This document shows positions 1 through 7,806 of a stretch of 46,841 bases of DNA, in pieces; the stretch's first letter is position 1, and each line of letters opens with the position of its first letter. A program made the translations under genes and the position numbers. The stretch is from a virus (Duplodnaviria; Heunggongvirae; Uroviricota; Caudoviricetes), in IMG/VR virus record IMGVR_UViG_2648501797_000005, positions 1 through 46,841 of that record; one strand, given 5' to 3'. The notes beneath the pieces were generated by a model. The model was not told the DNA's origin. It made no database searches and saw only the letters and a list, made by a program, of their open reading frames with translations.

Positions 1-90
1 TCACTCTGCCAGATGGCGCAATGCCATCTGGTATCACTTAAAGGTATTAAAAACAACTTTTTGTCTTTTTACCTTCCCGTTTCGCTCAAG
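1..90. other. host chromosomal flank (bio/ybhB side of lambda attB); perfect inverted repeat CCAGATGGC-gcaat-GCCATCTGG at 9..31
   Basis: Sequence to the left of the att core (CGCTCAAG read on the + strand, i.e. the B' arm, continuing CGAAACGGGAAGG on the other strand) matches my recollection of the E. coli side of attB-lambda; no phage-like coding. Confidence 0.55.
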
Positions 91-105
91 TTAGTATAAA
101 AAAGC
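91..105. other. att core (common O region) of the P-O-B' junction (attR in lambda convention)
   Basis: TTAGTATAAAAAAGC = reverse complement of lambda core GCTTTTTTATACTAA; flanked by B'-type sequence on the left and P-arm-type sequence on the right. Confidence 0.8.
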
Positions 106-250
106 TGAACGCGAAACAGCAAAAGCCAATAATATCAATGTGTTAAAATACATTTAGTCTAAAAAATAGACTGCATGATACTACAAAACACAACATATCC
201 AGTCACTATGAATCAACCACTTAGATGGTATTAGTGACCTGTAACAGAGC
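106..250. other. attP P arm (Int arm-type / IHF / Xis binding region), diverged from lambda near the core
   Basis: 186..248 is the reverse complement of lambda P-arm sequence CTGTTACAGGTCACTAATACCATCTAAGTAGTTGATTCATAGTGACTGGATATGTTGTGTTTT (from memory); 106..185 is AT-rich and only partly lambda-like. Confidence 0.6.
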
Positions 251-292
251 ATTAGCGCAAGGTGATTTTTTGTCTTCTTGCGCTAATTTTTT
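251..292 (+). terminator. sib/tI-like hairpin plus T-run just beyond the P arm
   Basis: ATTAGCGCAAG...CTTGCGCTAAT stem followed by TTTTTT on the + strand; position equals lambda sib relative to att. Confidence 0.45.
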
Positions 293-405
293 GTCAATGC
301 ACTGGGTTAGTTGAATTTACAACCATGCTCAGTATCTCGATAAGCGCAGGTAGATGATGCAGTGGTGGGCTGATTACATCGATGGTCGTGCAGGAGTGTA
401 AGCCA

Positions 406-2917: not shown

Positions 2918-5380
2918 TTACACCCACCCTAATAATTGAAATTTCTGGTAAATAAATTCAGCGTTTACGTCCGCGCCAGCCTGCAATGCATATTCAGGGG
3001 CGTTAGATGTTTCTTTCGATTGGCTAGGATGCAGTCCGTCATACTTCAATGAAGTTGGAGGGATATCATTTCCAAAGTCAGAAACGTCCTGAGAATATGC
3101 TGGATTATAGTTGTTTACGAAGTTTTCCCTCATATCAACACTATCAATTTCGCACCATAACTCAGGGTATTTCTTTTTAATCATGCTGTTTGATAACATG
3201 ACGTTTGCATAACCTGCTGATCCACGGGGCTCAACACTGCTGTTAAAATCAGGCAGGATAATAACCTTCTGCCCAAGAGATTTAAGGTATTCAACTACAC
3301 CAATAGTGTCGCTGAGAACCTGCATTGACTGGCTAATATTATTCCTTCCCATCCAGAAAATATTTATACATTCAGGGTGAAGAGGGAAAGATGTTCCTGC
3401 CGGAATTCCTCCGGTAATAGCACCAGTGGTCACCGGATCGCAAATGAATGGCACGGCAACAGGCACGTTAACCGCATCACCAGATGCATCACGGGTGAAT
3501 GTGGCATTGGTTCCATCCCATGAAAAATTGCCTGGAATGCCAGCCAGAGAACCGTGGAACGGCGTCGATGCTGCGGCGTTGGCAAAATAACTCAGTGGCC
3601 CCGGGTTTGCCGGAGAAAGAGTTACCGAACCGCTGGCAGGAATGCTGCCGCCAACTGGAACGTAATACGCTCTGCGCCCACCCTGAGCAGCAGCTGTGCC
3701 AACGCTTGTGCGTGAGCTTTTGCCAAAGTTATAGGCCGTGTAGCCGGTTAGCTCCTGCAGGCGTGTCAGCATACGGGGGTTATCAACCATTGAATGGCCC
3801 CACCCGCAAATGATCGGCCTGGCCATTACAGAGTGCTCAGTCAGATCATTGATATAGCAATAATACTGCCCACCCGGTGCGCGATTAGTCTCCCTGTCCG
3901 ATTGCCAGATAACCTTATCATCATCAACGCGTGGCAAGGTTTCATTACTGGATGTATTGGTTACACGAACCTGCTGACCTGTATCCCGATCAAACAGGAA
4001 AACCTGCTCATAGCCTCCTTTCTCTTCGCTAAATGCAATGTAATCAGGCTGACCTGAATTTGTCAGGTCCGATGATTTCAGCGACTCGATAACAACCAGG
4101 TTTTCAGATGTGGATGCCGAAATGTATCCACTATCTGCATACTCATCAGGTGAGAGAAACGTTACTGACTCTGGAAGAGGTGATAATGCGTCAGTAACAC
4201 CCTTTATCTCTGTAAAATCGCTTCCTTCAATTACAGCGTCATCAACGACAATTTTGCTAAAATAAATGGTGGTGCCTTTAATGCCAACAATAATTCTATT
4301 GTTTTCAGAAAAAGTTGCTGAGTCATACCCTGAATCCGAAAATTCAGATATATCGACAAAAGTCGAAGCCTGTAAAAAAGGAACGATTCCAAGAAGGCTT
4401 TGCCCAGAAATCAAAATATCATTTCCTGAAAGGATTTCAGCAGAAAATTCATCTGCGCTGATTTCCCCTGTTTTGATTTTTTGGAAGAACCACTCAACAC
4501 CTTTCCTGGATAGTAATATTTTTTTATTTTCATCTAGTATAGCCTCTTCCACCCCAGAATCTTTATATTCATCAGAAGAAAAGAATTCTGATGCCTGTGT
4601 TATATTTAACAAAGGGGAGTAAGGAGCAATTGATTCATCTACATACTTCTTAGATGGAATTTTCAGACCAGTGGGTTCAAGAGTGCCACTATTGTTAATT
4701 ACTTCAATAGCCAGTGCGCTGTCATCCGGGCTACGGTAAAATGCAGTAGCACCAGACAGAATATTGCCAGCATCGGCGTCGGCCTGTGCCGCCTCCAGCG
4801 TCGAAAATTCGCGGATGGTATTAGTTATAGACCCCTGTCCAGGGTACTCAGCAACCTCTTGTGCTACGCCTGAGTTATTTTTGTAATAACGGAAAGCAAG
4901 GACATTTCCTGTCCCCTGGGGAACGCGGAAGTATTGCCCGCTCGTCGTCGCTGCAAGGCCAGCCGCCGTATCAGCAAAGGTTGATTTATTGTCACCAAAC
5001 TCCGACGCGCTAAGTGCATATCCCTGTGCCTCTTCCGCTGAATCAGATGCCTGTTTTGCAAAATCAGCAATCACATTCAGCGTGTCAGCGGTCATCATGT
5101 TGGCAACCATGTCGTTGGCCGCCCACGCACGCGCCAGCGTTCCTTCTTGCGCACGTTCAATCGTGAAGATGTCCCCAGCCTTGGCTGTCACGTTCACGAT
5201 CTCAACCTGTGAGCCGGTGGCGGCATCGGTGAGAGTGAGCTTAAAATAGCTCTCGCCTGCCACAGCATCAGGGAACTCGGCACCAGTTCCTGCGCTAACG
5301 ATCAGCGACGTGTCGGTTGCGCTGATAGCAGAAGCCAGCGTGCTTTCTGCGTTGTTTGTAGCCAAAAGGGTTAGTGCCAT
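2918..5380 (-). CDS. tail fibre / tailspike protein (820 aa), possible esterase-like C-terminal domain
   Basis: GGAGGA Shine-Dalgarno before ATG 5380 (the 827-aa track ORF starts 7 codons earlier); shared N-terminal anchor with the other fibre; C-terminal DGLHPS resembles the SGNH block V motif (inference only). Confidence 0.65.
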   Translation of the reverse strand: MALTLLATNNAESTLASAISATDTSLIVSAGTGAEFPDAVAGESYFKLTLTDAATGSQVEIVNVTAKAGDIFTIERAQEGTLARAWAANDMVANMMTADTLNVIADFAKQASDSAEEAQGYALSASEFGDNKSTFADTAAGLAATTSGQYFRVPQGTGNVLAFRYYKNNSGVAQEVAEYPGQGSITNTIREFSTLEAAQADADAGNILSGATAFYRSPDDSALAIEVINNSGTLEPTGLKIPSKKYVDESIAPYSPLLNITQASEFFSSDEYKDSGVEEAILDENKKILLSRKGVEWFFQKIKTGEISADEFSAEILSGNDILISGQSLLGIVPFLQASTFVDISEFSDSGYDSATFSENNRIIVGIKGTTIYFSKIVVDDAVIEGSDFTEIKGVTDALSPLPESVTFLSPDEYADSGYISASTSENLVVIESLKSSDLTNSGQPDYIAFSEEKGGYEQVFLFDRDTGQQVRVTNTSSNETLPRVDDDKVIWQSDRETNRAPGGQYYCYINDLTEHSVMARPIICGWGHSMVDNPRMLTRLQELTGYTAYNFGKSSRTSVGTAAAQGGRRAYYVPVGGSIPASGSVTLSPANPGPLSYFANAAASTPFHGSLAGIPGNFSWDGTNATFTRDASGDAVNVPVAVPFICDPVTTGAITGGIPAGTSFPLHPECINIFWMGRNNISQSMQVLSDTIGVVEYLKSLGQKVIILPDFNSSVEPRGSAGYANVMLSNSMIKKKYPELWCEIDSVDMRENFVNNYNPAYSQDVSDFGNDIPPTSLKYDGLHPSQSKETSNAPEYALQAGADVNAEFIYQKFQLLGWV

Positions 5381-5403
5381 GTATCCTCCGGGATTAGGCA
5401 ATA

Positions 5404-5427
5404 AAAAAACCGCAAGCGCGGCCTTTT
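5404..5427 (-). terminator. short hairpin with 7-T run between baseplate genes and the fibre gene (weak, could act on either strand)
   Basis: CCGC-aagc-GCGG stem flanked by A7 and CCTTTT on the + strand. Confidence 0.25.
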
Positions 5428-5441
5428 AAATGGTGAATATT

Positions 5442-5708
5442 ATGAATAATGCTTCTATTGCTATTTTAAAAATACTTTTAGGAACGCTATCTACTTTATT
5501 AATACTCCTTTCTTGCGCCTTGCTTACTATTTTATTTGGATTTCTTTTTCAGCAAGGAATGCCGCCAATAGATATGATAAAAATGTCATCCATTTTGTTT
5601 TTATCAATAGTTGTGCTGCATATAATTTGTCAGTGCGTTAAATCTCATTTGTATATAACAATAGATAATCGAGATAAAAACCTAGTCAAATATCTCAACC
5701 GTGACTGA
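5442..5708 (+). CDS. small two-TM membrane protein encoded on the opposite strand in an AT-rich island
   Basis: ORF in strongly AT-rich DNA; GGTGA before ATG 5442 (ORF opens at 5430); two hydrophobic segments; 27-nt convergent overlap with the 5682..6386 gene. Confidence 0.4.
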   Translation: MNNASIAILKILLGTLSTLLILLSCALLTILFGFLFQQGMPPIDMIKMSSILFLSIVVLHIICQCVKSHLYITIDNRDKNLVKYLNRD

Positions 5709-6386
5709 CTGGTAAAACGGCATGTGCAGCAGGCCGCTATCCATGGCCTGCTTGAAGAAAATGGCGAACTCGAAATCCTCGGTGATCACAAAAGCCGTAT
5801 CCTTCTGGTTGTACTTCCTGGAGTTATAGGCCGATGCGTTATAGATAGCGCTCCGTGTGAACTGCCTCCGCCCCTTATAGATGGAAATCACGATACCGCC
5901 ATCCACAAACTGGATCGATATACTCCACCGCTGGTCGTTGAGGATGTCTGTGCCATTCACTCCCAACAGGAACCGCAGAATCCGCCGCTTTATCCATGGG
6001 ATAGAGAAATAGAAGCCGTCACCTTTGTAAAAATTCCAGGTCATGATCCGCTTAAAAAGGTCATCGGAGACAACAACCTGGTTAGACTGGTCAATCACCC
6101 GGTACTCATTGAATGCCAGTTGGTTAAATTCGAAAGTGTTATATGGGCCTATCTCCTGCTGTTCGCTGCTGGAAATCACCGGCGGCAACACGCCATAAAT
6201 GCCATGGGCAATCCATCGGAGCTGATCTCCGGTGTTGTAGTCACCGATGAAAATCGGCAGGTTGGCATTAACCATCCAGTCATAAATGCCCTGCGCCATC
6301 GAGTTATACGCAGTAAAAAACGCCCGCAGATTGTCATCGTCGTTGTATTGCGTATACATATACGACCGGATGATATCGTCCAGCAT
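5682..6386 (-). CDS. tail/baseplate protein (234 aa)
   Basis: Position between baseplate-like genes and fibre; size and order only. Confidence 0.45.
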   Translation of the reverse strand: MLDDIIRSYMYTQYNDDDNLRAFFTAYNSMAQGIYDWMVNANLPIFIGDYNTGDQLRWIAHGIYGVLPPVISSSEQQEIGPYNTFEFNQLAFNEYRVIDQSNQVVVSDDLFKRIMTWNFYKGDGFYFSIPWIKRRILRFLLGVNGTDILNDQRWSISIQFVDGGIVISIYKGRRQFTRSAIYNASAYNSRKYNQKDTAFVITEDFEFAIFFKQAMDSGLLHMPFYQSVTVEIFD

Positions 6387-6387
6387 G

Positions 6388-7806
6388 CTACGCCCCTGTT
6401 ACGATCACGCCATCCGACGCGATATAAAAATAACTGAACTTATCGCCGCTGATGATATTCGTCCCGGCATCCGGTGGCGTTATCACACCATTGACGGTGA
6501 CCACGACGTTTAGAGTGCTGATCAGCCCCATGTCGATTGTCGAGTTAATCGCCTGCAAGAATGCGTCTTTCAGGTTGTTAACGTTCAGCGGTTTCCCGGC
6601 GAATATGCCATTCACATACTGAATCGTAGGCGCCGAGACCAGAGAGGCGACCGTGGCATCAGTCAGGTAGTTAACACTTTCGGTCCCCCACTGATACGTC
6701 ACTGTGACCCGCTGCAGCAATGGTGTCACGAACGGGATCACGTAGTTATCAGGCCAGTCATTCACCGTCACGGTATTGTTTCTGACGTTCGGCGTCACCT
6801 CGCCGCCGCCTCCCCAGGTCCCGGATGAAGTGGTGTCAATTCCGATGGAAAAAGTGTGAGGAGACAGTACCGTCACGGTCAGAGGAACGTCATTAATGCC
6901 TGTCATCCCGGTAACGCCAGTGATCCGGATAACCTGGCCATCAGTGTAACCATGAGTCAGGTCTGTGCTGACGACGCCAGGATTTGCATTCGTGATCCCA
7001 GTTACATTCAGTGAACACCCTTTCAGCCGGCTGATATCCCCCGCAGACTTATAGAGCGCGCCAGCAATATCGTAAATATCACCGCCGGCGCACATGACTA
7101 TCCACTTATCCCCGTCCTGAATGACAGAAACCAGGCGCGCCTGCACGTTATCAAGGCTGGTGAGATATTGCCGGATAAATCCAGGATATCCCTGAACGGT
7201 AGCCATCTGCGCCTGCCATACGCGATCACGAAACTGATAGTTCGTTTCCGGATCAGCACCCGGAGTGCCGGCGATCGGGTTGGTGCAGGTGATGGTGACG
7301 TCAGACGGTAGACTGGATATGATCTGGTTAACCGTATTTACTGGCACCGCCCAGGTCCCGGTCTCCGTTCCCTCGCATGATACGCTGGCAGACACTCCAG
7401 ACGACGAGATAATCGTCGCATCACTGACTGAATAGGTATAGGTCCCATCAGAAACAATAAACCCCTGTGGGATAACAAATCCCGCCGGGCCGGAAAACTG
7501 AACCGGTACTGTTGTTGTGCCAGCCGTTTTCTGCCCAGGGATACCAGCCTGCTGTGCAAGAAGCTCCAGCATGGCCAGGTTAGCCTTTAGCGGCCCCACC
7601 GAGTTAATCAGGTCAACCCTCGCCTGATCGCAGACGATAAGTGCGCCGACATCAGTGCTGGCCACGTCTTCAATCAGAGAGCCAGGCAAATCAGTTGTGA
7701 GTCCCGGAGATAGCGCAATGGCCTGGGAAACGAGCTGTGCTCGTAGCTCTTCCGCCGTCAGAGGAACCGGGCCCGCTGACGTATAGCTGACTGGTAAATC
7801 GCTCAT
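6388..7806 (-). CDS. baseplate protein (472 aa), possibly baseplate-J-like
   Basis: Translationally coupled (4-nt overlap) within the tail gene run; size and order only. Confidence 0.4.
   Translation of the reverse strand: MSDLPVSYTSAGPVPLTAEELRAQLVSQAIALSPGLTTDLPGSLIEDVASTDVGALIVCDQARVDLINSVGPLKANLAMLELLAQQAGIPGQKTAGTTTVPVQFSGPAGFVIPQGFIVSDGTYTYSVSDATIISSSGVSASVSCEGTETGTWAVPVNTVNQIISSLPSDVTITCTNPIAGTPGADPETNYQFRDRVWQAQMATVQGYPGFIRQYLTSLDNVQARLVSVIQDGDKWIVMCAGGDIYDIAGALYKSAGDISRLKGCSLNVTGITNANPGVVSTDLTHGYTDGQVIRITGVTGMTGINDVPLTVTVLSPHTFSIGIDTTSSGTWGGGGEVTPNVRNNTVTVNDWPDNYVIPFVTPLLQRVTVTYQWGTESVNYLTDATVASLVSAPTIQYVNGIFAGKPLNVNNLKDAFLQAINSTIDMGLISTLNVVVTVNGVITPPDAGTNIISGDKFSYFYIASDGVIVTGA

Follow-up and report, generated by a model that had tools for sequence, protein, structure and literature searches.

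A family of small two-helix membrane proteins encoded antisense in an AT-rich cargo slot beside the tail-fibre genes of temperate enterobacterial phages

IMG/VR record IMGVR_UViG_2648501797_000005 (positions 1 to 46,841; 46,841 nt in all, hereafter the window) is an Escherichia coli prophage of the temperate myovirus type, with sheath, hub and baseplate J genes recognised by PHROGs. Between its baseplate genes and its tail-fibre genes lies a short AT-rich island carrying a small open reading frame (ORF) on the plus strand. This ORF is almost certainly a real gene encoding a membrane protein, and very probably represents accessory, non-structural cargo. A function in phage exclusion, or in blocking DNA entry, is suggested by analogy with characterised proteins and is put forward tentatively.

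An antisense ORF in an AT-rich island

The G+C content is 0.31 in the 200-nt segments 5401–5600 and 5501–5700, against 0.55–0.60 just upstream, 0.52 just downstream and 0.503 over the window, confirming the switch to AT-rich DNA that the initial annotation, a reading of the sequence alone, had placed between the baseplate run and the fibre gene. The small ORF has a G+C content of 0.30 (0.26 at third codon positions, GC3), compared with 0.47–0.56 (GC3 0.51–0.68) in the neighbouring and baseplate genes, and its index of similarity to the codon usage of the phage structural genes (modelled on the codon adaptation index, CAI) is 0.41, compared with 0.62–0.74 for its neighbours. This foreign composition is in keeping with the horizontal acquisition proposed at the outset, and a family member in another phage backbone (see below) shows that the gene is mobile.

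Only one ORF of 60 amino acids (aa) or more is found in the island (5430..5708, plus strand, 92 aa), and the surrounding virion genes are all on the minus strand. Within 5430–5680 the minus strand has no listed ORF reaching 30 aa, and the only other ORF of at least that size in the island is a nested 42-aa frame (5513..5641, plus strand, different frame), which is irrelevant; the description of a sole long ORF antisense to the virion genes was therefore correct. The in-frame ATG at 5430 is not conserved among homologues. Because these align from query residue 5, the true start is taken to be the ATG at 5442, giving 88 aa, the approximate length first estimated. The predicted convergent overlap with the adjacent 234-aa gene is exactly 27 nt, with stop codons at 5682–5684 (minus) for that gene and at 5706–5708 for the ORF. 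When the 307-nt, 31% G+C stretch was subjected to mononucleotide shuffling, an open frame of 92 codons was reached in 90 of 20,000 shuffles (six frames); the five remaining frames of the stretch contain 3–13 stops each.

A conserved protein family in Enterobacterales

Since a word-indexed protein search with the single sequence as query gave a 96% twin as its sole match, the family came to light only through an exhaustive phmmer search (1.84 billion representatives) followed by a profile. The phmmer search found eight further proteins at E ≤ 1e-3, with 33–46% identity; six are 95–98 aa long and the other two 143 and 70 aa, and all start at MNN. The profile built from these homologues retrieved 105 clusters of 82–101 aa, 104 of them below 1e-13, from the enterobacterial (Enterobacterales) genera Klebsiella, Salmonella, Enterobacter, Citrobacter, Kosakonia, Scandinavium, Yersinia, Kluyvera and Izhakiella. 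The members include one of 97 aa in Salmonella and one of 82 aa in Enterobacter. The 88-aa protein scores 105 bits (E 6e-25) against the family profile, via its 96%-identical cluster mate. The clusters are named 'hypothetical' or left blank, save for two JGI names that are evidently spurious, and none carries a Pfam domain; the homologues in genera beyond E. coli are annotated as genes by NCBI. Lack of conservation of the ORF in related prophages had been named beforehand as a result that would speak against the initial interpretation; conservation in fact extends from E. coli as far as Yersinia and Izhakiella.

Codon-level comparison indicates that the gene is protein-coding and under purifying selection. 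Within the family the ratio of nonsynonymous to synonymous substitution (dN/dS) is 0.06–0.3 while synonymous sites are saturated (proportion of synonymous differences, pS, 0.6–0.87). The members in contexts L028 and L034 differ with dS 1.83 and dN 0.13 (omega 0.07), and those in L028 and L029 with pS 0.07 and a proportion of nonsynonymous differences (pN) of 0; between the window copy and other members pN is 0.38–0.48 with pS saturated. Family members have a G+C content of 0.27–0.40, and the neighbouring gene 0.38–0.50. Two alleles occur in E. coli and differ at eight positions in the ORF, four synonymous and four conservative nonsynonymous, without stops or indels. This 4:4 ratio alone is not significant against neutrality (binomial p ~0.1). 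Across 16 genomes and 7 viral contigs the ORF is uninterrupted in either allele, and the island of E. coli ETEC4091 is 100% identical to that of the window.

By its sequence, the 88-aa protein defines an undescribed family that lies outside the Imm, YebO/gp15, holin and PADLOC families. A Pfam-A hmmscan of the protein and 10 members (E up to 1) listed neither T4 Imm (Imm_superinfect) nor HK97 gp15/YebO, and no member meets the cut-off of any Pfam family. One member matched Phage_holin_2 (E 0.018) and the BlyA holin was matched at E 0.29, both below the cut-offs. In PHROGs no family was found for the 88-aa protein at E ≤ 0.001, and one relative matched two families of 'unknown function' only (E 0.02–0.04). 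NCBIfam gave weak matches only (E 0.017 or worse, far below cut-off), PADLOC-DB gave no defence-system family for 10 members (E up to 1), and a sequence search of PDB gave nothing better than E 0.13. Foldseek against viral structures had a best E-value of 0.25, the helical hairpin being too generic for a fold search. Assignment to a known family was rejected, the matches in all six resources being at chance level.

Predicted topology and conserved residues

The two hydrophobic helices proposed initially are borne out by Kyte–Doolittle hydropathy, which has two maxima (about residues 4–36 and 45–66), and by an AlphaFold2 model (46-sequence alignment; pLDDT, the predicted local distance difference test, 87.6) showing a helical hairpin with helices 3–37 and 43–87 and a loop at 38–42. 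Lysine plus arginine residues number one at the N-terminus before the first transmembrane (TM) helix, one in the loop and five in the C-terminal tail, and because of this concentration in the tail, both termini are predicted by the positive-inside rule to be cytoplasmic (N-in/C-in) and the loop periplasmic.

Across the family the consensus reads MNNLSVxIxKxLLSS...FLIxLIFxMWxQEGIPPFENIKF...LLVICQCLKY..DMAIDxR and ends in a basic tail; conservation is strongest in the predicted periplasmic loop. The window copy shares the length range of the family (82–101 aa), the MNN start, K10, the G-x-P-P loop and the antisense position beside a fibre gene; I-C-x-C-L-K and D-x-R are further motifs that define the two-TM family. 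The polar positions K10, G39, P41, P42, K47, C65, K67, D75 and R77 are all retained in it. Comparison of conserved columns places it among the more divergent members. A second in-frame methionine lies several codons upstream in some members (MVNIM in the window copy, MVEM in Izhakiella, MVIKM in P0036) and is absent from most.

A slot for exchangeable envelope cargo

The closely related phages RothC, RothD and Chronis of Klebsiella share 95–96% DNA identity with the window over the baseplate genes. Phages of this type have been proposed as the family Felixviridae and are common as prophages of Enterobacteriaceae, including those of the gut (preprint 10.1101/2024.12.02.626457). In 16 of 17 distinct contexts the small gene is found at the same place, in antisense orientation, with the 234-aa gene on one side and the first fibre gene on the other. 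This position is independent of the fibre, which may be 256, 273, 284, 291, 340, 371, 388, 408, 412 or 531 aa long, or, as here, an 820-aa esterase, and the 3′ end of the small gene lies at −27, −11, 0, +6, +9 or +37 nt relative to the 234-aa gene in different members.

The seventeenth context, P0050, holds the closest relative of the window copy (49% identity) in a distantly related backbone, where the 208-aa homologue of the 234-aa gene is 44% identical. There the gene is preceded by the fibre and its chaperone and lies next to host genes, where the prophage ends, and since both backbone and position are different the small gene is considered mobile. In this context (locus L038), about 640 nt of very AT-rich non-coding DNA (3360–4000) separates the gene from the host genes ychH-prs-ispE-lolB, and presumably represents the prophage end or attachment region.

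Comparison of relatives shows the slot itself to be a cargo hot spot for envelope proteins, since they carry lipoproteins, secreted proteins or nothing there, and all cargo seen is envelope-targeted. It is empty in Erwinia L009, where a 140-nt spacer contains only a hairpin, and in Pantoea phage PdC23 and L011–L016 the 234-aa gene and the fibre gene are directly adjacent. Sense-strand lipoprotein genes occupy the slot in E. coli cS100a (L002 4145–4663) and Yersinia phage vB_YenM_29.18 (L041 3764–4396); these are AT-rich, encode lipoboxes LSSGC and LSGC, and neither product matches a known family. The Yersinia gene has an extended −10 promoter (TGtTACAAT) and a strong clean terminator, making it a textbook moron and a possible Cor/Llp-like receptor blocker. 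An antisense gene for a signal-peptide protein of 133–149 aa is found in RothC, Pantoea and Kluyvera, and a sense-strand gene for a secreted protein in Raoultella. Among 5426 complete E. coli genomes the backbone junction was present in 40, of which 16 carry the small gene and 9 a lipoprotein gene.

For the slot of RothC (L003, PP934563; 3799–4200, plus strand) GenBank gives three tiny ORFs of 43, 32 and 31 aa. A single 133-aa signal-peptide ORF (MKVIIRLLISLIFSSASVNAFA...) with a good ribosome-binding site and no known family spans all three; it is conserved in Pantoea (L007) and degenerate in Kluyvera (L010). The three annotated ORFs are probably a mis-split secreted cargo protein.

Just upstream of the fibre ribosome-binding site is a terminator-like hairpin (5403–5427) with a folding energy of −11.6 kcal/mol on the minus strand and −6.5 on the plus strand. 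Stronger equivalents occur at the same place in L028, Yersinia phage L041, L002, L003 and the empty-slot Erwinia L009. Because all relatives, including the one with an empty slot, carry such a hairpin, it is regarded on sequence grounds as a backbone terminator for minus-strand transcripts, separate from the cargo, although a consensus terminator scan left it unflagged. Expression of the fibre presumably needs read-through or antitermination, or else expression of the fibre gene is deliberately kept below that of the baseplate genes.

Comparison with known systems

Small membrane-protein cargo genes beside the tail-fibre genes of temperate phages are of a well-known kind, and it is the family itself that is new. 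A moron within the tail operon of HK97 encodes gp15, a small protein of the inner membrane that blocks genome injection (PMC3594210). The protein described here is likewise a predicted small inner-membrane protein, encoded on extra DNA of deviating composition in the tail region of a temperate phage, and the genome-entry block proposed for it would similarly be at the inner membrane, leaving the outer-membrane receptor untouched. The two proteins are unrelated in sequence, with no match to YebO or any other Pfam family, and HK97 gene 15 sits between the tail chaperone and tape-measure genes with prophage expression demonstrated, whereas the gene in the window is antisense at the baseplate/fibre junction with no promoter or terminator recognised. 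Imm and SieA are also inner-membrane proteins, and keep injected DNA from the cytoplasm (PMC11436027, PMC10883804). P22 SieA is larger. T4 Imm has a similar size and two predicted membrane helices but is a lytic-phage protein made early in infection, and its Pfam family was not matched.

P2 Z/fun and sopE of SopE-phi are placed beside tail-fibre genes. Together with lambda lom (PMC3594210) and cor of phi80/N15, a fibre-junction cargo gene (PMC11436027), they resemble the small gene in being accessory and often AT-rich genes in such a position; their products are envelope proteins, expressed from the prophage, and the genes sometimes move between phage families. They differ in encoding outer-membrane proteins, lipoproteins or secreted effectors of unrelated families, and the slot lipoproteins of the relatives are closer to Cor than the two-TM protein is.

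Proposed role and alternative explanations

In the mechanism proposed, the 88-aa hairpin would insert in the inner membrane with both ends cytoplasmic, so that the G-x-P-P-x-x-x-x-K loop faces the periplasm and the basic amphipathic tail lies in the cytoplasm. The gene would be expressed in the lysogen, at a time when the opposite-strand late operon is off, since it would otherwise be countered by convergent late transcription; during lytic growth, late transcription would run antisense through it. At the envelope the protein would act in superinfection exclusion, blocking the entry of phage DNA in the manner of HK97 gp15, T4 Imm and P22 SieA, and its likely target would be, instead of a surface receptor, a step common to the phages of this lineage. 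An entry block is favoured because the gene is constant while fibres and host O-antigens vary, and because it is tied to one baseplate lineage. Modification of the O-antigen or receptor (Iap/Gtr-like) is unlikely for the same constancy across fibre types and hosts.

A more elaborate and rather doubtful form of the proposal would make the protein the founding member of a new, Felixviridae-type family of injection blockers, in which the G-x-P-P loop would recognise the incoming tail tip or tape measure, antisense placement in the late operon would confer lysogeny-specific expression via convergent late transcription, and the slot would be a dedicated, exchangeable 'envelope-defence' locus holding a two-TM protein, a lipoprotein or a secreted protein.

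Several observations weigh against an exclusion role for this gene. None of the searches described above found sequence or fold likeness to known exclusion proteins or defence families, and tblastn with the 88-aa sequence and those of two homologues as queries gave no match among the isolated phages or plasmids. In the RefSeq feature tables consulted, for two E. coli copies, the ORF is left unannotated, and in 16 of 16 E. coli genomes carrying it no extra feature is listed under the match. E. coli 2024CK-00475 holds the window prophage and a second prophage of the same backbone with lipoprotein cargo, so that co-residence with a close relative is possible; this double lysogen weighs mildly against broad self-exclusion. 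The window copy keeps 15 of the 21 family columns with conservation of 90% or more, the six lost being five hydrophobic swaps and N45 to M.

Signals for expression of the small gene add to these points. A consensus scan recognised no sigma-70 promoter within 160 nt for the window copy, and its best score with a position weight matrix (PWM), 6.9, was reached by 179 of 500 shuffles. Relatives have a TG-extended −10-like hexamer 27–28 nt before the ATG (TGgTAAAAT, TGgTAGTAT, TGgTATTAT), which was at first taken as good promoter evidence and then downgraded, as the PWM test against shuffles singled out only the Yersinia member (TTGACT-17-TGcAAAAAT; 7 of 500 shuffles) as statistically notable. The leader of the window copy is about 25 nt shorter than those of the relatives, the −10-like segment is lost, and 20 nt separate the hairpin from the ATG. 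The scan found no plus-strand terminator after 5708, where the small gene runs into the convergent 234-aa gene, and upstream in the prophage there is no plus-strand gene from which transcription could read through. A GC-rich hairpin at 5728–5752, within the 234-aa gene, was rejected as a terminator, having no U-run, a z-score of −1.25 and no conservation in Salmonella. Of the hallmarks of a moron in the Juhala/Hendrix sense (PMC3594210), the class proposed initially, extra DNA between genes that are adjacent in relatives and a deviating composition are present, while the gene lacks a terminator of its own and a recognisable promoter; it is a moron by position and composition, and less clearly one by the strict definition (own promoter, terminator and prophage expression).

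The short leader, the missing promoter and the six lost positions would also suit a situation, compatible with any of the functional readings and considered here to be rather improbable, in which the family is functional but the E. coli window copy is a transcriptionally orphaned or decaying remnant. The allele ratio, indistinguishable from neutrality, and the fibre gene already broken in allele-B prophages point the same way. Against decay, the ORF has remained intact in both alleles across all the genomes and viral contigs carrying it, the allele replacements are conservative, and the Shine–Dalgarno sequence and all but one of the conserved polar residues are kept. Short leaders are also found in the Kluyvera and Izhakiella members (37–49 nt), and for this reason a promoter inside the 5′ end of the fibre gene is possible.

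A lysogenic-conversion factor without any exclusion role is unlikely. Such a protein would benefit the lysogen by modulating a membrane protein or process of the host, for instance in transport, stress response or envelope signalling, and the evidence on gene, topology and slot is equally compatible with it. Many moron products, such as Lom and Bor, have non-defence roles (PMC3594210), a conserved host target would agree with conservation in hosts ranging from Yersinia to E. coli, and a double lysogen with a related phage exists. A gene of generic benefit to the host should, however, spread more widely than this one, which is nearly confined to the tail module of one lineage (16 of 17 contexts) and has no chromosomal, non-prophage copies among the contexts examined.

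Less probable still is a membrane-damaging effector (a toxin, an abortive-infection protein or a holin/antiholin-like protein) that would depolarise the membrane when de-repressed and might otherwise be restrained by late transcription from the opposite strand or by its low expression level. Class II holins and pinholins have two TM helices, an N-in/C-in topology and a charged C-terminal tail in about 70–100 aa, a layout that the small protein is predicted to share (hydropathy, positive-inside count, AlphaFold hairpin). The upstream second methionine of a few members and the complete overlap of the gene by antisense late transcription also speak for this reading, and a weak or absent promoter would suit a toxic product. 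The gene is nevertheless located in the tail module and antisense to the late operon rather than in the lysis cassette, a dual-start motif is not conserved (most members lack the upstream methionine), and no holin family is matched: the similarities to holins or 2TM effectors concern single members at E 0.018–0.03, below the cut-offs, and PADLOC gave none. Type I toxins are shorter (below about 60 aa), with a single TM helix and a dedicated antisense small RNA (sRNA), compared with 82–101 aa and two TM helices here; the only antisense RNA expected over the small gene is the late-operon transcript, and Rfam gave no sRNA above threshold in 5000–6100 (best csRNA, E 0.74). The concentration of conservation in the predicted periplasmic loop also points to a specific interaction more than to general damage to the membrane.

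That the ORF arose by chance in a non-coding, AT-rich spacer, as the lack of RefSeq annotation in E. coli and of a promoter might suggest, has a negligible probability and is ruled out by the shuffles, by at least 104 homologous clusters sharing length, start and motifs, and by dN/dS, the protein being conserved while synonymous sites are saturated.

Neighbouring genes

Features of the region are listed in Table 1. The ATG codons of the fibre gene and the small gene are 61 nt apart, the fibre starting at ATG 5380 with a GGAGGA ribosome-binding site and not at the TTG at 5401 given by the ORF lister. E. coli homologues of the 820-aa fibre are named SGNH/GDSL hydrolase or sialate O-acetylesterase in RefSeq, and to judge from these homologues it is probably a deacetylating receptor-binding protein. 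The middle of its gene (about 4100–4700) falls to 0.34–0.38 G+C, which suggests a mosaic origin. A second fibre-like gene (406–1437, minus) encodes a glycine-rich protein of 343 aa that matches tail fibre and fibre assembly PHROGs and has an N-terminal adaptor region in common with the 820-aa fibre, so this phage appears to have two receptor-binding proteins on the same anchor. In the allele-B genomes (L004 2564–5953, E. coli MEI008; n = 15, 97% allele) the SGNH fibre is annotated as broken, into a partial pseudogene and a C-terminal fragment, and these prophages may be defective although their small ORF is intact.

In many relatives a plus-strand gene for an Acyl_transf_3 protein (O-antigen acetylase-like) or a SASA esterase comes directly after the fibre genes, a position that is a second lysogenic-conversion site distinct from the slot of the small gene. 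The left end of the window (1–400) is AT-rich (0.35 G+C) and adjoins the last fibre-like gene; it may be a prophage boundary or further cargo.

Table 1. The small gene, its slot and neighbouring features (coordinates of the window unless a relative is named).
Feature	Position	Strand	Evidence or remarks
820-aa tail fibre, C-terminal SGNH/GDSL esterase, divergent from the small gene	2918..5380	-	PHROGs tail fibre matches; RefSeq homologue names
AT-rich island (0.31 G+C), cargo slot separating the last gene on the baseplate side from the first fibre gene	5401..5700		Composition profile, GC3, CAI-like index
Terminator-like hairpin with T7 run, core CCGC-GCUU-GCGG, just upstream of the fibre ribosome-binding site	5403..5427	-	Folding
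Likely Shine–Dalgarno sequence GGTGA, 5 nt before ATG 5442	5433..5437	+	Read from sequence; relatives carry GGTG, GGAG or GAGGGG there
Coding sequence, predicted 88-aa two-TM inner-membrane protein of an uncharacterised family	5442..5708	+	ORF list, phmmer alignment start, profile search, dN/dS, AlphaFold, hydropathy/charge
234-aa baseplate-side structural gene, phrog_8212; DUF2612 annotation in phage PdC23	5682..6386	-	PHROGs; synteny kept in all relatives
Baseplate J-like gene, then hub, sheath and further genes	6388..7806	-	ORF list
Acyl_transf_3 or SASA esterase gene of relatives	L029 3282-4427, L040 681-1781, L043 2048-3184, L031 1349-1978; also L006, L008, L009	+	After the fibre genes

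Significance

The analysis defines a family of small membrane proteins, hitherto unannotated and at least 104 clusters in size, together with one exchangeable slot for envelope cargo. Two annotation gaps are exposed, the gene being missing from RefSeq E. coli and the cargo ORF of RothC probably mis-split. The concept is unchanged, since small membrane-protein morons in tail regions were already known. If the cargo genes do encode exclusion factors, they would shape the superinfection of lysogens of E. coli, Salmonella, Klebsiella and Enterobacter, with a bearing on phage therapy and host-range prediction, and a new sequence family would join the very short list of inner-membrane injection blockers.

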